64,000 bases of DNA from Actinomycetota bacterium (GTDB lineage: Bacteria; Actinomycetota; Acidimicrobiia; Acidimicrobiales; Ilumatobacteraceae), in contig CP064997.1 of NCBI GenBank assembly GCA_016700055.1, positions 2,938,514 through 3,002,513 on the forward strand. Direction: 5' to 3'. This document shows, one piece after another, positions 6,733-50,585 of the stretch (position 1 is its first letter; every line of letters begins with the position of its first letter). Position numbers and translations under genes: made by a program. Under the pieces are notes generated by a model that did no database searches, was not told where the DNA came from, and was given only the letters and a program-made list of their open reading frames with translations.

Positions 6733-7362
6733 TCATCTCCACATGTCGGCGATGCGCTGGTCGAGGCTGCGCACGACACCTGCCGGCACGGGAATGTCCG
6801 ACGAGAGCGCGAAGTGCAACAGGCTGGCGACGCGGTTGGGGCAGTTGCGGGCGCGCCGGAGCAGGTAGTCCCAGTCGAGCTCGGTGCCGGTCAGGATCGC
6901 CAGGGCGTCGTACCAGTGGCGCGGCGAGGTCTCGTCGGTGGTCGCCGCCTTGGTGACGATCAGGTCCTCCGGCGGAGCCACCGGCAGATCCACGCCGCGG
7001 AAGGTGATCCACCGGATCCGCTCGGCCATCTCGGCATCGAAGTAGATGTCGGACTTGATCTTGAAGATCACGTCGACCACGACGTCGTCGCGGAACGCCT
7101 TGTAGATCCACGCCGGATTCGTCTGCTCGACGAGGAAGCCCCCGCCGGCGAGGACGCTCAGCACGGCGTCGGCGGTCTCTGCCCGGCACAAGAAGTCGAT
7201 GTCGTTGGTGTGCCGCGGTCGACCGTAGGCGGCCGAGGCGACCCCGCCGATCACCGCGAAGGGGATGGCGGCCTCGTGGACGAGGCGCACCGATTCGGTG
7301 AGCACGGCGAGGAAGCTCCGATCCGAGGTCCGCACCTCTTCGATCTCACGCGCTGCGCGCAT
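6733..7362 (-). CDS. nucleotidyltransferase-fold protein (AbiEii/MNT-like GGxA...RxTxDIDF motif)
   Basis: FAVIGGVASAAYGRPRHTNDIDFLC matches the minimal NTase G-[GS]...D-x-D signature; overlaps GT4 stop by 17 nt. Confidence 0.6.
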   Translation of the reverse strand: MRAAREIEEVRTSDRSFLAVLTESVRLVHEAAIPFAVIGGVASAAYGRPRHTNDIDFLCRAETADAVLSVLAGGGFLVEQTNPAWIYKAFRDDVVVDVIFKIKSDIYFDAEMAERIRWITFRGVDLPVAPPEDLIVTKAATTDETSPRHWYDALAILTGTELDWDYLLRRARNCPNRVASLLHFALSSDIPVPAGVVRSLDQRIADMWR

Positions 7363-8428
7363 CCGTTGCTCCCGCGGACGCTCTGGCCATCAGCTCGGCG
7401 TACACCCGCTCGTAGCCGTCGGCCATCTGCTCGACCCCGAAGTCGCGGGCACGGCGCCGGCAGTCGGCGGGGTCGATCTCGCCGATCCGGTCGACCGCTC
7501 TCACCATGTCTTCGGGGTCGTCGCAGATGAATCCGCTGACCCCGTGCTCCAAGATCTCTGGAACAGAGCCGCGGCGCAGCGCGATCACCGGTGTGCCGGC
7601 GGCCAGCGACTCGATCATCACGAGCCCGAACGGCTCGGGCCAGTCGCTCGGGAACAGCGTCGCCGCAGCATTCGCGAAGAAGCCAGGCTTCTCGGCCTCG
7701 CCGAGCTCGCCGAGGAACTCGACGTGGTCACCGGCGAGCAGCGGCTCGATCTCGTGACGGAAGTACTCGGTGTCGAACGGGTCGACCTTGGCGGCGATCT
7801 TCAGCTGCCATCCCGTGCGGCGAGCGACCTCGATCGCGACGTCGGGCCGCTTCTCGTGCGACATGCGTCCGAGGAAGGCGAGGTAGCCGCCGTCGTCACG
7901 CGGGTGGCGGTGGTAGTCGCCGAGCGCCAGCCCGTTCGGCACCGTGGCCATCCACTGCAGGGGCAGCGACGCCACCGCCCGCCGCTGGTCGTCGCTGATC
8001 GAAACGAGCGCCGCGCCACGGGCACGGGACAGCGCGATGCGGGCGTGGGCGACGTCGAGTCGACCGTGCATCGTCAACAGCCAGGGCGTGTACGGCGAGC
8101 CGACGGCGCTCATGTAGGGCAGCGAGAGGTCGACGTGGCTGTGGATCACGTCGAACTCGTCCGCGCGCAGCAACACCTCGTCGAGCATCTGCTCGTGCAG
8201 GCGAGGCCCGTGCTCCGCGAGCTCGGCCGCCCCCATGCGTGACCGCAGCGGGCTGTGCACGGCAGGCTCGAGGCGCGCAGTCGTGGTGGAGGTAGCGGTC
8301 GCGAAGAGCGTCACGTCATGGCCGGCGGCAACGAGGCCGTCGCACAGGCCGGCCACGACACGCTCGGTCCCGCCGTACGTCGCGGGCGGCACGTCTTCGT
8401 ACAAGGGGGCGATCTGGGCGATGCGCAT
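7346..8428 (-). CDS. glycosyltransferase family 4 (GT-B, group 1)
   Basis: Start trimmed to ATG 8428 (MRIAQIAPLYEDVPPATYGGTERVV); C-terminal E-x7-E region (PSDWPEPFGLVMIESLAAGTPVIA). Confidence 0.85.
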   Translation of the reverse strand: MRIAQIAPLYEDVPPATYGGTERVVAGLCDGLVAAGHDVTLFATATSTTTARLEPAVHSPLRSRMGAAELAEHGPRLHEQMLDEVLLRADEFDVIHSHVDLSLPYMSAVGSPYTPWLLTMHGRLDVAHARIALSRARGAALVSISDDQRRAVASLPLQWMATVPNGLALGDYHRHPRDDGGYLAFLGRMSHEKRPDVAIEVARRTGWQLKIAAKVDPFDTEYFRHEIEPLLAGDHVEFLGELGEAEKPGFFANAAATLFPSDWPEPFGLVMIESLAAGTPVIALRRGSVPEILEHGVSGFICDDPEDMVRAVDRIGEIDPADCRRRARDFGVEQMADGYERVYAELMARASAGATDARSA

Positions 8429-8622
8429 CAGATGCTCTCCGACGCCGCGAGGGGAACCAGGTGGCCGAGACTGTGCCGGAACACTCCTCCACAGTTCGGG
8501 CAGCCGCGCGTCGTGCCATCGACGACCATCAGGTCGGCGCCACAGCGTGGGCAGGGGGCAGCGAAGATCGAGCTGATTCCGGAGATCGACGGATCTGGCG
8601 CGCCGGCGGTGATCTGTTGCAT
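8428..8622 (-). CDS. small zinc-ribbon protein (CPRC...CPNC)
   Basis: 64 aa with two CxxC pairs 16 residues apart; its TGA shares one nt with the GT4 ATG (TGATG); GC-rich third positions. Confidence 0.5.
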   Translation of the reverse strand: MQQITAGAPDPSISGISSIFAAPCPRCGADLMVVDGTTRGCPNCGGVFRHSLGHLVPLAASESI

Positions 8623-8707
8623 CCGTCGCCGTTACCCCGGCGGCGTGGGCGTCAAACGGTGCAGACCGGCGTTTCGGCACTCGCGGAACAGGGAAACACA
8701 GGCGTTC

Positions 8708-9325
8708 ATGACGACGCTTCTGGAATACGCCCAGCAGCACTTCCCGGAGCACGAGGTGGAGTGCCCCGACGGGGCGGTGCCGCTCAACGACATCACCGTG
8801 GTCGCGCACGTGGTCGGACGCACCCGGGCGGCCAGCTTGGTCGAGGGTTTGCGCAAGGCCCTCCACGCCGGGATCGCCAGGGAGGAGCCGAGGATCAAGA
8901 CGGTGATCGTCGAACCGACGTCGCCGACGGTGGTCAACTCCGGCGGCGAAGACCCCGAAGGCGTCGTCGACCTACCCGTCCGGCGCCTTGCCGTCGGGGC
9001 ACTGATCGGTGGCGTGATACTCGGTTTGATCGTCGGTGTCTTCGGCGGGCTCGTCGCGAGCTCTCTCGTCGCAGGCGTTCTCGTCGGGCTGTTCGGTGCC
9101 TTGCTCGGTGCCGCGGCGGGTGCGATGTGGGCCGGTGGCGGCCGCTACGCAGGAAACCGGTCGTGGGAGCAGCCCCACGCCCCCGAGTCGGCGATCGTGC
9201 TCGTCGCCGCGACGTTCGACCACGAGGGCGATGCCCTGGAGGCGGCCGAGGTGATGGCCACCTACGACCCGAACGCGGTGAGGATCGTCGCCGAGGACGG
9301 GGCCTGGCGGAGTCCCAACATCTGA
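8708..9325 (+). CDS. membrane protein with glycine-zipper transmembrane segment, unknown function
   Basis: Start trimmed to ATG 8708 (MTTLLEYAQQHF); AVGALIGGVILGLIVGVFGGLVASSLVAGVLVGLFGALLGAAAGAMWAGG; divergent from the zinc-ribbon/GT4 operon. Confidence 0.55.
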   Translation: MTTLLEYAQQHFPEHEVECPDGAVPLNDITVVAHVVGRTRAASLVEGLRKALHAGIAREEPRIKTVIVEPTSPTVVNSGGEDPEGVVDLPVRRLAVGALIGGVILGLIVGVFGGLVASSLVAGVLVGLFGALLGAAAGAMWAGGGRYAGNRSWEQPHAPESAIVLVAATFDHEGDALEAAEVMATYDPNAVRIVAEDGAWRSPNI

Positions 9326-9509
9326 GCGTCCCGAGCATCTGAGCGATTGGTGGTTTGGCCTCGCTGGTGTCCGGGTACCGACTGCGACATGTCGGGACCC
9401 ACCCTCCGCACCGCACGGGCCTGACACGCGCCGATCTAGCGCCTCAGGAGCCTCGGCGGATCTGACCCGACCGTCGAGACCCGAGTCAGCGAGAGCTCGG
9501 CCGACGCAC

Positions 9510-9539
9510 GGGGGTGCCGGACAGGCAGCCGGCACCCCC
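9510..9539 (+). terminator. GC hairpin GGGGGTGCCGG-N8-CCGGCACCCCC (no U-tract)
   Basis: 11-bp perfect stem read directly; 185 nt downstream of the 8708..9325 stop. Confidence 0.3.
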
Positions 9540-9568
9540 GCATGCGTCGGTCTGCCGAACCCCCACGT

Positions 9569-9616
9569 CACGACCGACGGCCACGACCGATCGATCACGA
9601 CCGACGATCACGACGG
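9569..9616 (+). repeat. four tandem 13-14-bp repeats with core CACGACCGA immediately upstream of hypF
   Basis: CACGACCGA at 9569, 9582, 9596 and CACGACGG at 9609 (spacing 13/14/13 nt); ends 25 nt before the hypF ATG. Confidence 0.6.
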
Positions 9617-9640
9617 CCTCACCGGAAGGCCCGCGGTAGG

Positions 9641-12037
9641 ATGAGCTGCGTGGCTCGCCGATCATCGGCGGATGCATCGCCGGGGAGCGTCGCCAGCACC
9701 GTCGACGTCGTTCGCAGACGCCTGAGGCTGACCGGAGTCGTACAGGGGGTCGGGTTCAGACCGTTCGTGCAGCGTCTGGCGACCGAGCTCGGCCTCGCGG
9801 GGTTCGTCGGCAACGACCCCGACGGCGTGTTCGTAGAGGTGGAGGGCGCCGCACCATCGGTCGAGGCCTTCGCGGCGCGGGTGCGCTCCGACGCCCCGTC
9901 GCTCGCCGTGGTCGAGACGGTGACGGCGTCCGCGCAGGCGGTCCACGGCGACACGGGCTTTCGGATAGCCGAATCCGTCGCCTCCTGCGGTGCGCCTACC
10001 ACGCTCGTGCCCGCCGACGTGGCGACATGCGCCGAGTGTGTGTGCGAGATCGGCGACCCCGGTGATCGTCGCTACCGCTATCCGTTCACGAACTGCACCA
10101 ACTGCGGGCCGCGGTTCACGATCATCCGCGAGCTGCCCTACGACCGGGCGCGCACGACGATGGACGGCTTCGTGCTCTGTGCGGCCTGTCTCGCCGAATA
10201 CCGGGATCCTGCGGATCGTCGCTTCCATGCCGAGCCGGTGGCGTGCCCCGACTGCGGTCCGCAGCTCGCGTTCGAGCGGCACGGTCAAGACGTGATCCGA
10301 GGAACCGATGCGGTGGTCGCCGCCGTGCAGGAGAGCATCGCCGCAGGTGAGGTGGTGGCGGTCAAAGGCATCGGTGGCTACCACCTCGCCTGCGATGCCT
10401 CCGACCGGCGCGCCGTGGCACTGTTGCGCGAGCGCAAGGGGCGCGTCGACAAGCCGTTCGCGCTGATGGTCGCGAACCTGGTCGTCGCGCGTGAGCTCGT
10501 CGAGCTCTCGGCGCAGGACGAAGACGTGCTCGCCTCGCCGGCTGGCCCGATCGTGCTCTGCCCGCGGCGCAGCGACGCGCCGTTGGCGGACAACGTCGCC
10601 CCCGGCAGCCCCTATCTCGGATTGATGCTGCCGTACAGCCCGTTGCACCACCTGCTCTTCCGGGCCGTGCCCGACCGCACCACCCGCGTGCCGCGCGTGC
10701 TCGTGCTCACGTCGGGGAACCTGTCCGACGAACCGATCTGCACCGAGAACGGCGAGGCCCGTGTGCGGCTGGCCGCGCTCGCCGATGCGTACGTGACCCA
10801 CGATCGCCCGATCCACGTCTCGTGCGACGACTCGGTGGTGCGTACCGGGTCGCGGGGGCGGCACCGGGCACTGGAGCCGCTCCGGCGGTCCCGCGGTTAC
10901 GCACCGCTACCGGTGACCCTTCCGTTCGAACTGGCCGTCCCCACGCTCGCCGTCGGCGGTCACCTGAAGAACACGTTCTGCGTGGCGGCGGGGAGGCGGG
11001 CGTGGATGAGCCAGCACGTCGGCGACATGGACAGCCTGGAGGCACTGCACGCGTTCGAGGGCGGCGTGGAAAGGCTCTGCGCGCTGTACGGCATCGACGC
11101 GGTACGCCTCGCCGTCGACATGCATCCCGGATACGTCACGTCTCGCTGGGCCCGCGAGAACGCCGGGGGCCGCGAGGTGGTTCCGGTGCAGCACCACCAC
11201 GCACACGTCGCGGCGCTGATGGCCGAGCACGGCCTCGGCGAGGCCGCGCAGGTGATCGGGATGGCCTTCGACGGGACGGGCTACGGCGTCGACGTCGAAG
11301 GGCACGTCTCGATCTGGGGTGGCGAGGTGCTCGTCGCGGGGTACGCCGGCTTCGAGCGCGTCGGGCACCTACGAGAACTTCCTCTGCCGGGCGCCGACGC
11401 TGCGGTGCGCAATCCCTGCCGGGTCGCTCTCGCGTACCTGGCCGCTTGCGGCATCGACGGCGGTGAAGGCGACCTCGCCCCTCATCGCGCCTGCAGCGAC
11501 GAGGAGCGCCGGGTCGTGGCCCGCATGGTCGAGCGCGGTTCGGGGTGCGCGACGACGTCGAGCATGGGTCGGTTGTTCGACGCCGTCGCCTCGCTGCTCG
11601 GGGTCCGCCAGCGCGTCACCTACGAGGCCCAGGCGGCGATCGAGCTCGAAGCACTGGCCGCGGCGCACGACAGCGGGGGTGTCGTGTGGCCGGTGGAGTT
11701 CGCGGTGGATGCCGACGGGGTGATCGATCCCGCCCCGCTGCTCGGCGGGCTCGTGGCCGGGGTGCGCGCCGGAGTGCCCGCGGCGGCGCTTGCCCACGGC
11801 TTCCACGGCGCGGTGGCGGCGCTGGTCGTCGACCGGGCGGCGGCGGCACGGGCCGAATCCGGCCTGGATGTCGTGGCGCTGACCGGCGGCACGTTCCAGA
11901 ACGTCTTGTTGACGACGCTGGCACGGGAGGGCCTGGAGGCCGCCGGGTTCGAGGTGCTGACCCACGAAGTGGTGCCCCCGAACGACGGCGGGCTGGCCCT
12001 TGGCCAGGCGGTCGTCGCCGGAACGAGGACGGCCTGA
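9641..12037 (+). CDS. hypF: [NiFe]-hydrogenase maturation carbamoyltransferase HypF
   Basis: Acylphosphatase-like VQGVGFRPFV, two zinc-finger pairs (CAECVCE...CTNCGPRF; CAACLAEY...CPDCGP), YrdC-like and Kae1-like domains; start ATG 9641 chosen, upstream ORF part is HDRR-repeat junk. Confidence 0.95.
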   Translation: MSCVARRSSADASPGSVASTVDVVRRRLRLTGVVQGVGFRPFVQRLATELGLAGFVGNDPDGVFVEVEGAAPSVEAFAARVRSDAPSLAVVETVTASAQAVHGDTGFRIAESVASCGAPTTLVPADVATCAECVCEIGDPGDRRYRYPFTNCTNCGPRFTIIRELPYDRARTTMDGFVLCAACLAEYRDPADRRFHAEPVACPDCGPQLAFERHGQDVIRGTDAVVAAVQESIAAGEVVAVKGIGGYHLACDASDRRAVALLRERKGRVDKPFALMVANLVVARELVELSAQDEDVLASPAGPIVLCPRRSDAPLADNVAPGSPYLGLMLPYSPLHHLLFRAVPDRTTRVPRVLVLTSGNLSDEPICTENGEARVRLAALADAYVTHDRPIHVSCDDSVVRTGSRGRHRALEPLRRSRGYAPLPVTLPFELAVPTLAVGGHLKNTFCVAAGRRAWMSQHVGDMDSLEALHAFEGGVERLCALYGIDAVRLAVDMHPGYVTSRWARENAGGREVVPVQHHHAHVAALMAEHGLGEAAQVIGMAFDGTGYGVDVEGHVSIWGGEVLVAGYAGFERVGHLRELPLPGADAAVRNPCRVALAYLAACGIDGGEGDLAPHRACSDEERRVVARMVERGSGCATTSSMGRLFDAVASLLGVRQRVTYEAQAAIELEALAAAHDSGGVVWPVEFAVDADGVIDPAPLLGGLVAGVRAGVPAAALAHGFHGAVAALVVDRAAAARAESGLDVVALTGGTFQNVLLTTLAREGLEAAGFEVLTHEVVPPNDGGLALGQAVVAGTRTA

Positions 12038-46636: not shown

Positions 46637-48541
46637 TCAGGTGGTGCCGGTGATCGAGCGCAAGAACTCCTCGGCCTCGGCGCGATGACGGGTGCGGCGC
46701 ATCGGCGGCAGGGCGCGGATGATGTCCCAGCGGTAGCCGGCCGTGCCGAGCCGGCGGTCGAGCACGGCCACCACCCCGCGGTCGGTCGTCGAGCGCACCA
46801 GCCGGCCGGCGGCCTGCGCGAGCAAGGTGGCCGCGCGCGGCACGTCGATCTCGGCGAACGCGGCGGGTCCGAGCAGCTCTCGGCGAGCGGAGAGCAACGG
46901 GTCGTCGGGTCGAGGGAACGGGATGCGGTCGACGACGACGAGCGACAACGAACGACCGGGCACGTCGACCCCTTGGAAGAACCCGGAGGTGGCGAAGAGG
47001 CAGACGGACTCGTCGTCGGTGAACTGCTTGAGGAGCGCCGGCTTGGGCAGGTCACGCTGGGTGAGGACGGGATACGCCAGCCGCGGGCGCAGCGCCTCGG
47101 CGGCGGCATCCATTGCCCGGTAGCTGGTGAACAGCGCCAAGGTGCGACCTTCCGCGGCCTCGATCAACGCGGCGAGCTCGTCGTGCGCGGCGTCGCGAAA
47201 GCCGCCATGGCGCGGGTCGGGCAGGTGCATCGCGCAGTACAGCAGGGCCTGCGTCGCGTAGTCGAACGGGCTTCCGACGTCGATCGACTCGTGACCGTGC
47301 GCGTCGAGGCCGACTCGTCGAGCGAGCGAAGCGGGGATGGTCGCGCTCGTCAGCACCGCGGTGGTCTTCGACCAGACACCTCGCTGGAGCAGCGGCCCGA
47401 CGTCGAGCGGGGCGATCTCGAGCCGCGGGTGCTCGGGCCCTCCGGCGACGTAGGCGACGTGGCCCTCCCGGGCGCCGAGCGCGACGTCGAGTGCCTCTGC
47501 CAGCCGGGTGGCTGCGGTCACGCCGCGCAGCTTGCGTTGCTTCGCGTCTTCCACCTCGGTGGTGATCGCGCGCAGCACGTCGAGTGATGCCTGCACGGCC
47601 TGCCGGCAGGACAGCACGGCGTCGGACACCTCGGGCGGCAGCGGGTGGGGCAGGCGGGTGCCGAGCAGGGGGGCGAGTGCGTCACGGAGCTGTAGCCCGC
47701 TGTCGGTGACCCGAGCGAGGAGCTGGGGGTCCGCCACGATGCGCCCGAGGGCGGCGACGAGGAACCGCAGCCGGCCCGCCCCGAGCGACACGCCGACGGT
47801 GTCGCTCATGATGTCTTCCAACTGGTGGGCCTCGTCCACGACGAGCACCTCGTGCTCGGGCAGCAGCACCCCGCCGCTGCCGACGTGCAGCCCGTACAGG
47901 TGGGTGTTGACGACGACGACGTCGGCGCCGGTGGCCCGCCGCCGCGCTTGCTCGGCGAAGCACGGCTCACCCAGCGGGCAGCGGCTCGCGCCGGGGCACT
48001 CGTCGCTGCCGACGCTCACGGACCGCCACGCGCGCTCGCTAGGCGACCACGCGAGCTCTGCCGCGTCGCCCGTCGGCGAGGTCTTCGCCCATTGGTCGAG
48101 GCGCACCACCTCTGCCCGGATGCTGGAGCCGAGGTCGTCCAGTTCGAGCTGGCCCTGCTCGCCGGCGGTGAGCTCGTGCAGCCGCTGTAGGCACACGTAG
48201 TTGCTGCGCCCCTTCAAGACCGCCCAGGTGAACGGGTCGCGGCCCGTGTGGAGGGCGAGCTGTCCGGCGACGAACGGCAGGTCCTTCGTCGCGAGCTGGT
48301 CCTGGAGCGCCTTCGTGGCCGTGGCGACGACGACGCGCCGACCGGACAGTGCGGCCGGCACCAGGTAGGCGAGCGTCTTACCGGTTCCCGTGCCGGCCTG
48401 GACGACGAGGTGACGGTGCGTGTCGATGCTGCGGGCGATCTCGCCTGCCATGCGCTCCTGGCCCGGGCGGTGCTCGCAAGCCGCGAGCCCACCGGCAACG
48501 GCGCGCAACGCGCCGACGACGTCGTCGGTCGTCGGGCTCAC
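46637..48541 (-). CDS. dinG: ATP-dependent DNA helicase, DinG/XPD (Rad3-like) family
   Basis: GTG 48541 in GTGA overlap with uppS stop; QAGTGTGKT Walker A, VVDEAHQLED, four-Cys Fe-S region (VCLQ...ECPGASRCPLGEPC). Confidence 0.85.
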   Translation of the reverse strand: MSPTTDDVVGALRAVAGGLAACEHRPGQERMAGEIARSIDTHRHLVVQAGTGTGKTLAYLVPAALSGRRVVVATATKALQDQLATKDLPFVAGQLALHTGRDPFTWAVLKGRSNYVCLQRLHELTAGEQGQLELDDLGSSIRAEVVRLDQWAKTSPTGDAAELAWSPSERAWRSVSVGSDECPGASRCPLGEPCFAEQARRRATGADVVVVNTHLYGLHVGSGGVLLPEHEVLVVDEAHQLEDIMSDTVGVSLGAGRLRFLVAALGRIVADPQLLARVTDSGLQLRDALAPLLGTRLPHPLPPEVSDAVLSCRQAVQASLDVLRAITTEVEDAKQRKLRGVTAATRLAEALDVALGAREGHVAYVAGGPEHPRLEIAPLDVGPLLQRGVWSKTTAVLTSATIPASLARRVGLDAHGHESIDVGSPFDYATQALLYCAMHLPDPRHGGFRDAAHDELAALIEAAEGRTLALFTSYRAMDAAAEALRPRLAYPVLTQRDLPKPALLKQFTDDESVCLFATSGFFQGVDVPGRSLSLVVVDRIPFPRPDDPLLSARRELLGPAAFAEIDVPRAATLLAQAAGRLVRSTTDRGVVAVLDRRLGTAGYRWDIIRALPPMRRTRHRAEAEEFLRSITGTT

Positions 48542-49236
48542 GAACGCGCGAGCGCGATCGCGCGGTCGAGCTCGGCGGCGTCGAACTCGGGCCAGGTGCA
48601 CTCGGTGAAGTACACGTGGCAGCCGGCGATCTGCCACAGCAAGAAGTTGGAGATGCGCTGCTCGCCGGACGTGCGCACCAGCACGTCGACGGGTGGGAGC
48701 GAGGGTAGGTAGAGGTGCGCGGCCAGGTGCTCGGCGGTGGGCGACTCACCGGCTGCGCGCAGCTCGTGGGCGGCGTGCACCAGCTCGGCATGGCTGCCGT
48801 AGTCGAACGCCACCGTCAGCACCATCCCGGTGTTCTGCGCGGTGTCGGCGATCGCCTTGCGGATCGCCCGCTGGACGTGTTTCGGCGTGAGGGCGCCGGG
48901 CGAGTCGAACGGGCGGCCGATCCACTGCACCCGCACGTTCAGCTCGTTCAGCTCGGCGACCCGGCCGAAGAGCTTGCGGTGCAGCCCGATGATGTGGCGT
49001 ACCTCGCCGCGGGGGCGGACCCAGTTCTCGGTGGAGAACCCGAACACCGTCAGCCAGCCGACGTCGCGGGCGACGGCCGAGCGCACCACGGCGGCCAGGT
49101 TCTCCTCGCCCTCGGTGTGCCCGGCGGTGCGCGGCAGCCCGCGGCGCTTCGCCCACCGTCCGTTGCCGTCCATGATGCACGCGATGTGCAGCCCTGGCCC
49201 GAGCGGGCTCGGGGGCGACGGAGCGGGGGGCGGCAC
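48538..49236 (-). CDS. uppS: cis-prenyltransferase (undecaprenyl/decaprenyl-diphosphate synthase family), catalytic motifs intact, C-terminal RxG tail absent
   Basis: IMDGNGRWAKRRG, GHTEG, FGFSTENWVRP, VRTSGEQRISNFLLWQ; ends ...WPEFDAAELDRAIALARS-stop. Confidence 0.9.
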   Translation of the reverse strand: MPPPAPSPPSPLGPGLHIACIMDGNGRWAKRRGLPRTAGHTEGEENLAAVVRSAVARDVGWLTVFGFSTENWVRPRGEVRHIIGLHRKLFGRVAELNELNVRVQWIGRPFDSPGALTPKHVQRAIRKAIADTAQNTGMVLTVAFDYGSHAELVHAAHELRAAGESPTAEHLAAHLYLPSLPPVDVLVRTSGEQRISNFLLWQIAGCHVYFTECTWPEFDAAELDRAIALARS

Positions 49237-49286
49237 GGGTGCCGACGATACTTGCGCCGGGTCCCCATGGCGGGCCGTTCCCGGTG

Positions 49287-49306
49287 CGGACGTGAGCGGA
49301 CGTGAG
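49287..49306 (+). repeat. perfect tandem duplication GCGGACGTGA x2 in the divergent uppS / uppS-like gap
   Basis: Read directly; 12 nt upstream of the GTG 49318 start. Confidence 0.7.
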
Positions 49307-49317
49307 AGGATGCGCCG

Positions 49318-49869
49318 GTGCCCTCCCCGCGCTCAGACCGCTCAGCGGAGCCGTTGCCGCTGACGCACGTGATGCTCGTCGGGGGCACCGTCGGCGAATG
49401 GGCCCAGCTCGACGAGGAGCGTTGGTTGCAGCGGGCGAGTGCCCTCGGCGACGCCGCCCGAGCTGCGGGTTGCCGCTGGCTGACCCTGCACCCGTACGGC
49501 CCCGACACCTCGGCAACCGTCGCCGCGGCGCCGTGGACGCTGGAACGCGACGGGTGCACGGTGATCGTCGATCCCGAGCCCGACGGGCGCGCCAGACTGC
49601 TGCGCGGCATGCAGCGGCTCGCGCCAGAAGCGGCGCTCGACGAAGCCGCACTTGCCGCGGCCGTGCTCGCGCCCGCCGCCTGCGATCCGGATCTCGTCGT
49701 CGTGCTCGGGCCCCCCGATCGCCTGCCGCCCTCGCTCGTCTGGGAGCTCGCCTACAGCGAGCTCGTCTACCTCGACGTGGCGTGGCCCGACCTCGACGTC
49801 GAGCACCTCCGCGCCGCGCTCGACGAGTACGCCGGGCGCGATCGCCGCTTCGGCGGGGTGTCCTCGTGA
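49318..49869 (+). CDS. degenerate UppS-like (cis-prenyltransferase fold) protein lacking catalytic N-terminal motifs but retaining C-terminal RRFGG
   Basis: HVMLVGGTVGEWA in place of HVAIIMDGNGRWA; PDLVVVLGPPDRLPPSLVWELAYSELVYLDVAWPDLD...YAGRDRRFGG parallels UppS C-terminal half; GTG start; GTGA overlap with recO. Confidence 0.65.
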   Translation: MPSPRSDRSAEPLPLTHVMLVGGTVGEWAQLDEERWLQRASALGDAARAAGCRWLTLHPYGPDTSATVAAAPWTLERDGCTVIVDPEPDGRARLLRGMQRLAPEAALDEAALAAAVLAPAACDPDLVVVLGPPDRLPPSLVWELAYSELVYLDVAWPDLDVEHLRAALDEYAGRDRRFGGVSS

Positions 49870-50585
49870 ACCCGCTGTACCGCGACACCGGTGTCGTGCT
49901 GCGCACCTACAAGCTGGGTGAGGCGGACCGCATCGTCGTCATCCTCACCGAGGCCCACGGCAAGGTGCGGGCGGTGGCCAAGGGGGTGCGCAAGACCGGT
50001 TCGCGCTTCGGCGCCCGCATGGAGCCGATGAGCCACGTCCGGCTGCTGCTGTACCGCGGCCGCGAGCTCGACATCGTGAGCCAGGCCGACTCCGTCGACT
50101 CGCTGCGGCCGCTGCTCGACCACCTCGACATCGCCACCCAAGGCCTCGCGCTGCTCGAAGCCGTCGACCAGCTCGCCCCCGACCGTGAGCCGGTGCCCCA
50201 GCTGTACCGGATGCTCGTCGGTGCCCGGCGGACGCTTGCCGAGCGACCCTCGCCACTCGTCGTCGCGGCGTTCTACTGGAAGCTCCTCGCCGCCGAGGGT
50301 GTGCGGCCCGAGCTCGACGTGTGCGTGTCGTGCGGCGAGGCGGGCGACCTGGTGGCGTTCGACCTGGCCGAAGGCGGGGTGTCGTGCCGGCAGTGCCGCG
50401 GCGGGGTCGCGATCTCGGGGGAGGCGTTGACGCTGTTGCGCAGCGTCCTCGGAGGTCGGCTCAACGAGGCCCTGGCGGAGCCGTCGTCGTCGACCACGGC
50501 CGAGGTGACGCACCTCGCGACGAAGGCGGTGGAGCACCACCTGGAGCGCCGGCTGCGCACCGTGGCGATGTTCGAGCAGCACTGA
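49866..50585 (+). CDS. recO: DNA repair protein RecO
   Basis: GTG 49866 (VNPLYRDTGVVLRTYKLGEADRIV); zinc motif CVSCG...CRQC. Confidence 0.9.
   Translation: MNPLYRDTGVVLRTYKLGEADRIVVILTEAHGKVRAVAKGVRKTGSRFGARMEPMSHVRLLLYRGRELDIVSQADSVDSLRPLLDHLDIATQGLALLEAVDQLAPDREPVPQLYRMLVGARRTLAERPSPLVVAAFYWKLLAAEGVRPELDVCVSCGEAGDLVAFDLAEGGVSCRQCRGGVAISGEALTLLRSVLGGRLNEALAEPSSSTTAEVTHLATKAVEHHLERRLRTVAMFEQH

Follow-up and report, generated by a model that had tools for sequence, protein, structure and literature searches.

The canonical undecaprenyl diphosphate synthase (UppS), as known from E. coli, M. luteus, M. tuberculosis (Rv2361c), and T. fusca, is a homodimeric enzyme that carries its catalytic site together with Y211, E213, and a C-terminal R-x-G (RxG) motif on one polypeptide (residue numbers are those of E. 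coli UppS unless given otherwise). The heteromeric cis-prenyltransferases (cis-PTs) DHDDS-NgBR (NUS1) of humans and Rer2/Srt1-Nus1 of yeast are instead built from a catalytic subunit without RxG and an accessory subunit, a reduced pseudo cis-PT with neither active site nor tunnel, that ends in the RxG motif (PMC7573591). In the human complex, the C-terminal end of NgBR passes over the subunit interface and makes up the region of the DHDDS active site that binds diphosphate, as happens likewise in the homodimeric enzymes (PMC7573591), and mutations in RxG cripple both E. coli UppS and a Giardia cis-PT (bioRxiv 10.1101/139675). Here we describe two adjacent, divergent genes, P1 and P2, in a window of 64,000 nucleotides (70.5% GC) from contig CP064997.1 of an Actinomycetota genome (Ilumatobacteraceae; GCA_016700055.1). 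The parts that a canonical UppS unites on one chain are divided here over two genes, and the pair probably encodes a heteromeric enzyme of bacterial origin.

The closest prokaryotic parallels are the archaeal heteromers of Methanosarcina (MA3723/MA4402 and MM_1083/MM_0618) and Archaeoglobus (Af1219/Af0707), which, like P1 and P2, combine a soluble, RxG-less catalytic protein with an inactive, RxG-bearing paralog. Both archaeal subunits are needed for activity (PMC12998183, PMC13586052, bioRxiv 10.1101/139675), and the accessory ones have been grouped with NgBR/Nus1 (bioRxiv 10.1101/139675). A review from 2026 counts "all characterized bacterial CPTs" (cis-PTs) among the homomeric enzymes and lists heteromers for eukaryotes and archaea only (PMC13586052), and a paper from 2025 draws the same picture of homomers and heteromers (PMC12998183). 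Our full-text literature searches, which did not reach subscription-only literature, returned no heteromeric or NgBR-like cis-PT from bacteria in general or Actinobacteria in particular. As far as that literature goes, a UppS split over two genes has not yet been described in bacteria.

P1 (48538..49236, minus strand; 232 aa, read from the GTG at 49236 to the TGA at 48538-48540) is the candidate catalytic subunit and is named "polyprenyl diphosphate synthase" by NCBI (QQS26477.1). It matches PF01255 over profile positions 1-209 of 219 (E 1.2e-63, 215 bits, against a gathering cut-off of 27 bits), lies above the TIGR00055 uppS cut-off (191 bits vs 109.55), is 40-50% identical to canonical bacterial UppS, and finds its closest PDB sequence in the T. 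fusca enzyme 7CPN (E 4.5e-48). Residues were mapped by aligning P1 and P2 to E. coli UppS, with the C-terminal half of the E. coli sequence confirmed by PDB alignment; the N-terminal numbering fits the known positions of D26, R30, H43, S71, N74, and W75. On this alignment P1 shares the full set of catalytic residues with the canonical enzymes: D26, R30, R39, H43, S71, N74, W75, R77, R194, E198, R200, and S202, the set from regions I-V expected of the TIGR00055 class, are all in P1, and none is in P2. The codons of its IMDGNGRW motif, catalytic region I with the equivalents of D26 and R30, lie at 49153..49176 on the minus strand. The RxG tail is absent. The protein ends in WPEFDAAELDRAIALARS, 13 residues past WPEF and 4-5 residues short of R241-R242-F243-G244, and Y211 and E213 are replaced by G and H, so that the active-site polypeptide lacks RxG (R242-x-G244), Y211, and E213 alike. 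A preliminary description of the locus had recognized both the complete catalytic motifs and the stop just before the RxG position, and the alignment bears it out on each.

P2 (49318..49869, plus strand; 183 aa) is the candidate non-catalytic accessory subunit, which NCBI calls an "undecaprenyl diphosphate synthase family protein" (QQS24578.1). Its match to PF01255 covers positions 124-219 only (E 1.7e-13, 51.1 bits vs a cut-off of 27), and none of the NCBIfam models reaches its cut-off. The protein had been described as a degenerate copy with its catalytic residues lost and a UppS-like C-terminal half ending in RRFGG, and this is what we find. It reads LVGGTVGEW where IMDGNGRW is expected and LGPPDRLPPSLVWE where RTSGEQRISNFLLWQ is expected; D26 is changed to G, R30 to E, R194 to V, S202 to P, and F204 to S; and the R39/H43 segment, the S71-E81 stretch (FSxENWxRP), and the alpha2/alpha3 tunnel helices are deleted. 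What P2 keeps is Y211, E213, and the R-x-R-R-F-G-G tail, in a C-terminus that reads RDRRFGGVSS; the codons of R176-R177-F178-G179-G180 (P2 numbering), the RxG tail, are at 49843..49857 on the plus strand. Over 111 aa, its C-terminal half has 33% identity to E. coli UppS (E 6.5e-20), and it is less like its neighbor P1 (25% over 97 aa, E 1.8e-5).

An AlphaFold2 model of P2, made with the family alignment as input, has a mean pLDDT of 85.6 and a pTM of 0.82, and predicts a reduced cis-PT fold of six strands and six helices. A beta hairpin stands in place of the alpha2/alpha3 tunnel helices, and the final residues are of low confidence, leaving the tail free. A Foldseek search of the PDB with this model returns bacterial UppS first (E ~1e-7, TM 0.55-0.63), with human NgBR at TM 0.53. 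Outside the tail, the most conserved block of P2 is residues 130-150, corresponding to the betaE-betaF linker and alpha6, which together with alpha5 form the dimer interface of solved cis-PTs (PMC7573591). As read from the sequence and the model, without a dedicated transmembrane predictor, P2 has just 16 residues, polar or proline-rich, ahead of its first beta strand, and there is no membrane anchor.

The pair is not peculiar to this genome. P2 has more than 1,400 relatives in a collection of 5.8 billion proteins, the 120 listed being mostly 165-215 aa long, and a scan of one genome per GTDB species finds P2 relatives in 376 species. Our locus comparisons use the 80 best P2-relative loci of that scan, with ~20 kb per genome; all are labelled as Ilumatobacteraceae, Acidimicrobiaceae, Acidimicrobiales, Acidimicrobiia, or unclassified Actinomycetota/Actinomycetes. 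Among them is an isolate, Ilumatobacter nonamiensis YM16-303. The gene order, with the dinG-like gene and P1 pointing one way and P2 and recO the other, is conserved. A P1 ortholog (67-86% identical) lies divergently upstream of the P2 ortholog in every locus where the contig leaves room, recO comes directly after the P2 homolog in all 77 loci that leave space for it, the translational overlap of P2 with recO is conserved, and a DinG-like helicase adjoins P1 in 66 of 71 loci. The co-occurrence of a tail-less P1 with a degenerate P2, a check that the preliminary description had called for, thus holds wherever it can be seen. The aligned starts of P1 and P2 are 25-236 nt apart in orthologous loci, save for two loci (L051 and L073) with insertions of ~2.1-2.3 kb between the two genes; strict adjacency is therefore not absolutely required.

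Both genes are under strong purifying selection. Between close species pairs (dS below ~1, Nei-Gojobori), dN/dS is 0.02-0.09 for P1 and 0.02-0.18 for P2. Median identity to the protein of the window is 75% for P1, 49% for P2, 79% for GlyRS, and 70% for RecO. P1, being close to GlyRS, therefore evolves like a housekeeping enzyme, while P2 changes faster around a set of fixed anchor residues, as is usual for accessory subunits. An alignment of 25 P2 family members has 42 invariant columns spread over both halves, including the blocks H-V-x-V-G-G, W-L-T, D-G-R-x-R, P-A..P-D, L-G....L-P-x-S-x-V-W-E-L-x-Y-x-E-x-V, and R-x-R-R-F-G-G.

The complementarity of the two proteins becomes apparent when their families are compared position by position with the canonical enzyme. 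Three groups were set side by side: 70 orthologs of P1, 70 of P2, and 100 tail-bearing UppS representatives, the last drawn from 1.84 billion scanned cluster representatives. R194, R200, and S202 are present in 100% of canonical enzymes and 100% of P1 orthologs and are replaced in P2, although R200 is still R in 56%. The tail and its companions show the reverse. Y211, found in 99% of canonical enzymes and 100% of P2 orthologs, is G in 96% of P1 orthologs; E213, at 100% in both canonical enzymes and P2, is a variable K, R, A, or H in P1. R239 (96% of canonical enzymes) is absent from 77% of P1 orthologs and present in all of P2, and R241, R242, and G244 (100%, 95%, and 100% of canonical enzymes) are absent from P1 and at 100% in P2. 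The P2 orthologs keep R-x-R-R-F-G with F243 at 97% and G245 at 99%, the fifth tail residue being G in 69 of the 70. In the P1 orthologs, D26, R30, R39, H43, F70, S71, E73, N74, W75, R77, E81, R194, E198, R200, S202, N203, and F204 are each conserved at 100%, as are the D, G, N, G, R, and W of IMDGNGRW. For D26, R30, R39, H43, S71, N74, W75, R77, and E81 the scoring was confined to the families of P1 and P2, and all of them are replaced or deleted in P2. Y211 and E213 thus travel with the tail, and the split is wider than RxG alone.

The missing tail of P1 is not a frameshift artifact, since no RRFG-like peptide occurs in any frame within 300 nt downstream of P1 in 72 loci; a tail hidden by frameshift or read-through is ruled out on the same ground. 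All complete P1 orthologs end 12-22 residues past WPDF without RxG, the exception being one locus (L020, described below) that reads through into the dinG-like gene. Neither gene alone is a canonical UppS, because P1 and its complete orthologs end short of the motif, which is not encoded in another frame either, and Y211 and E213 are replaced. An RxG-less catalytic subunit and a catalytically dead, RxG-bearing paralog are the marks of the heteromeric class, and P1 and P2 show both in their sequences.

We consider it likely that P1 and P2 form an obligate heteromer, with the tail provided in trans by P2. This is the most economical reading, because P2 keeps the tail without having an active site, and the only neighboring cis-PT site has lost precisely that tail. 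P1 would carry the sole active site, with the residues that bind Mg/farnesyl diphosphate (FPP) and isopentenyl diphosphate as well as the hydrophobic tunnel, and it is without three near-invariant elements of the homodimeric enzymes, the R-x-G tail, Y211, and E213. P2 would be a duplicate that has lost its own active site and tunnel and retains exactly those elements along with the dimer-interface block (betaE-betaF linker and alpha6). The flexible P2 tail would cross the P1:P2 interface and complete the diphosphate-binding site of P1, as the tail of NgBR does for DHDDS and as one subunit does for the other in homodimeric UppS. The strict gene adjacency and the conserved interface block of P2 lend a physical heteromer indirect support. 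The product would most likely be a polyprenyl diphosphate of the C50-C55 class, the cell-wall glycan carrier. Heterodimerization, complementation in trans, the product, and essentiality are all what we infer from these patterns. Y211 and E213 may likewise be trans-acting or tail-supporting residues, a role that no paper states in our literature search on the function of E213. The division of labor after the manner of DHDDS and NgBR, proposed in the preliminary description, is thus supported at the sequence level by the clade-wide split of the tail, the lack of a hidden tail in other frames, adjacency, purifying selection, and the behavior of Y211 and E213.

The likeness to the eukaryotic pair extends to single positions. 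Position 213 is C in DHDDS and variable in P1, and is E in both NUS1 and P2; checked against PDB chains 6z1n_A and 6w2l_B, DHDDS has H211 and C213, and NUS1 keeps E213. Both accessory proteins replace the catalytic S-G-E-x-R loop by G-P-x-D (FGPVD in NUS1, LGPPD in P2). Unlike NgBR, P2 has the bacterial RRFGG tail and no N-terminal membrane anchor. Unlike DHDDS, P1 is without the C-terminal helix-turn-helix, and a dimer of heterodimers is therefore not expected. Also unlike DHDDS and NgBR, the two genes are adjacent, divergent, and bacterial.

We tried P2 as an ortholog of NgBR/Nus1 and rejected it, as the P2 family profile is far closer to M. luteus and E. coli UppS (E 2-4e-17) than to NUS1 (E 9e-4). 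P2 is therefore a derived bacterial UppS, and its likenesses to NUS1 are convergent. The archaeal heteromers also appear to have a separate origin from P1 and P2, although here we set them apart by their description in the literature rather than by direct sequence comparison with P2. The P1 orthologs are a tight, isolated group, with one full-length representative (P0136) and fragments at 50% clustering. Among the 1.84 billion representatives, the next best match outside the group (P0141) is 51% identical and tail-less, followed by canonical enzymes at 49% or less. The nearest tail-bearing relative (P0152/P0290) is 49% identical, and its gene stands directly after a recO, with stop and start overlapping, whose product is 50% identical to the RecO of the window. 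A uppS gene directly after recO is the usual arrangement in Actinobacteria. As its nearest tail-bearing relative is recO-linked, the pair looks like a descendant of a recO-linked housekeeping uppS; it would have arisen within Acidimicrobiales from bacterial UppS, independently of NgBR/Nus1.

Other relatives of P1 without a tail were seen in passing. The gene for P0141 lies 10 nt downstream of a trans-polyprenyl synthase (PF00348) on a Logan contig (ERR12725708; L081, 3392-4994), an arrangement suggestive of a cis/trans prenyltransferase pair of another kind, possibly for a secondary metabolite. P0158, P0226, P0245, and P0279 are UppS-like, ~41-45% identical to P1, and apparently without RxG; they could be further split or tail-independent cis-PTs, or truncated gene calls.

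Several points weigh against an obligate heteromer. The tail-less P0141, in its other context, makes it conceivable that an RxG-less enzyme acts alone. A further complete uppS may lie beyond the 64 kb inspected of the source genome and the ~20 kb inspected per relative. The association of P1 with P2 and the dependence of activity on P2 are themselves drawn by inference, as is the role given to Y211 and E213, whose basis is their pattern of conservation. The first alternative that follows, which we regard as unlikely, is that P1:P2 is a true heteromer serving as a specialized second enzyme, with another chain length or a Z,E-FPP primer, while the housekeeping falls to a gene elsewhere, for an ordinary complete UppS or for a short-chain Z-prenyl synthase. 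Many Actinomycetota do have two cis-PTs (for example, Rv1086 and Rv2361c in M. tuberculosis), and the best PDB match of P1, 7CPN, is a (2Z,6E)-FPP-specific enzyme. The pair occupies the recO locus, however, which is the housekeeping uppS site in Actinomycetota and the site of its nearest tail-bearing relative, P0290; no canonical uppS follows recO in any of the 77 loci; no third cis-PT-like sequence is present in the 64-kb window, and no third PF01255-like gene in the 80 loci; and the conservation of P1 is comparable to that of GlyRS.

A slightly less probable alternative is that P1 is a self-sufficient homodimer working without RxG, with P2 acting as a regulator, a scaffold, or the partner of another enzyme. 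Tail-less homologs elsewhere (P0141, P0158, P0226, and P0245) speak for it, as does the fact that P1 passes the equivalog cut-off of TIGR00055. It has to contend with an active-site-free P2 that, over 70 species, holds R239, R241, R242, and G244 invariant and F243 at 97%, when the RxG tail has no known use but to complete a cis-PT active site in trans. Moreover, what P1 has lost is exactly what P2 has retained, including Y211 and E213, which are at 99-100% in 100 canonical enzymes, and the two genes are neighbors in every locus with room. Finally, that P2 is a decaying pseudogene of a tandem duplication or a spurious open reading frame (ORF) is effectively refuted, for although its N-terminal half has no detectable Pfam match and long spurious ORFs are common at the GC content of the window, the number of its relatives together with its low dN/dS excludes a chance ORF, and the length of the relatives listed (mostly 165-215 aa), the invariant columns (several of them N-terminal), the confident AlphaFold2 fold, and the conserved overlap with recO all argue against decay.

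A wider proposal can be put forward, tentatively and as plausible rather than probable. Much of Acidimicrobiales, counting at least 376 species, may depend on an obligate heterodimer as its only essential lipid-carrier synthase. This enzyme would have come from a homodimeric bacterial UppS through a duplication and complementary losses, independently of the DHDDS/NgBR systems of eukaryotes and archaea, and would have converged with them at single positions (loss of the tail and of E213 in the catalytic chain, and G-P-x-D in the accessory one); Y211 and E213 may belong to a trans-acting tail apparatus in all cis-PTs. So far heteromers have been ascribed to eukaryotes and some archaea, and they have been used in arguments on an archaeal origin of the eukaryotic enzyme. 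An independent, clade-wide bacterial heteromer would make the transition from homodimer to heterodimer a recurrent one for this fold, and the pair would be a clean example from nature of duplicates that degenerate in complementary ways. It would also offer a small, soluble, anchor-free model for the activation of a partner site by an RxG tail, with a bearing on disease mutations in NgBR and DHDDS. The current names, by which P1 is a complete UppS and P2 a "UppS family protein," hide that neither gene is likely to be active by itself. Experiments are feasible, as the pair is found in cultured Ilumatobacter strains.

The layout of the locus is as the preliminary description gave it, in the coordinates of both ORFs, the 81-nt gap between them, and the two GTGA overlaps with the flanking genes. 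At 49866-49869 the stop codon of P2 overlaps the GTG with which recO begins; recO (49866..50585, plus strand) encodes RecO_N and RecO_C domains (TIGR00613, E 2.2e-40), and is probably co-transcribed with P2 given this overlap. On the other side, the P1 stop overlaps the likely GTG start (48541) of a DinG/YoaA-like DEAH helicase gene (46637..48541, minus strand) at 48538-48541. The helicase has Helicase_C_2 and DEAD domains and matches the YoaA model NF053712 (E 1.7e-149, 499.5 bits) below its cut-off of 680 bits; public gene calls make it 634 aa and overlapping P1. Its gene is co-oriented with P1 and overlaps the P1 stop in most relatives as well. DNA-repair genes (recO and dinG/yoaA) thus flank a lipid-carrier synthase gene pair on either side. 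The intergenic region (49237..49317) presumably holds the promoters of both genes, which would be transcribed divergently from it, with P2 translationally coupled to recO and P1 to the helicase. A scan of these 81 nt for the sigma-70 consensus gave no match, which is uninformative for an actinobacterium of 70% GC. A Shine-Dalgarno-like GAGAGGA lies 8 nt 5' of the P2 GTG.

The start of P1 deserves a separate remark. GTG 49236 is the sole in-frame start codon 5' of the conserved LHIACIMDG strand, while the public gene calls (PGAP/GenBank QQS26477.1 and Logan) start at M22, giving 211 aa and dropping the conserved first beta strand LHIACI (49171-49236, minus strand). The public annotation of this start is probably wrong. 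There is no Shine-Dalgarno-like element before GTG 49236, and the P1 mRNA may be leaderless or nearly so.

A few of the orthologous loci depart from the common form. In two of them (L045 and L055), the alignment of the P1 ortholog falls into two pieces that lie in different frames; these apparent frameshifts are probably assembly errors of metagenome-assembled genomes (MAGs) and not pseudogenes. In an Ilumatobacteraceae MAG (L020; CAVZOP010000002.1, locus coordinates ~7300-9906, minus strand), the P1 stop is lost and the frame runs into the DinG-like helicase as an 863-aa ORF, which may be either a genuine fusion of UppS and helicase or a product of misassembly. Three loci (L032, L042, and L063) form a divergent P2 subgroup, set apart by an insertion of ~20 residues behind the second strand, by an HVLxCGGT motif, and by tails that read RRYGG or RRFGS; it shows how far the accessory subunit can vary.

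The intergenic region also contains the tandem repeat that the preliminary description had singled out, GCGGACGTGA. Tandem Repeats Finder (TRF) reports 2.5 copies at 93%, of which two, at 49286..49305, are perfect 10-bp copies; the repeat ends 12 nt before the P2 start codon, just 5' of the GAGAGGA element. It is real and perfect in the window; among conspecific metagenome contigs the two copies differ from each other at two positions in five of six and are perfect in the remaining one. We considered the repeat as a regulatory element and rejected it on the grounds that it is not conserved even within the species. Perfect tandem duplications with a unit of 9-12 bp occur five times in the window, and this one is probably an old slippage duplication that stands outside the mechanism.

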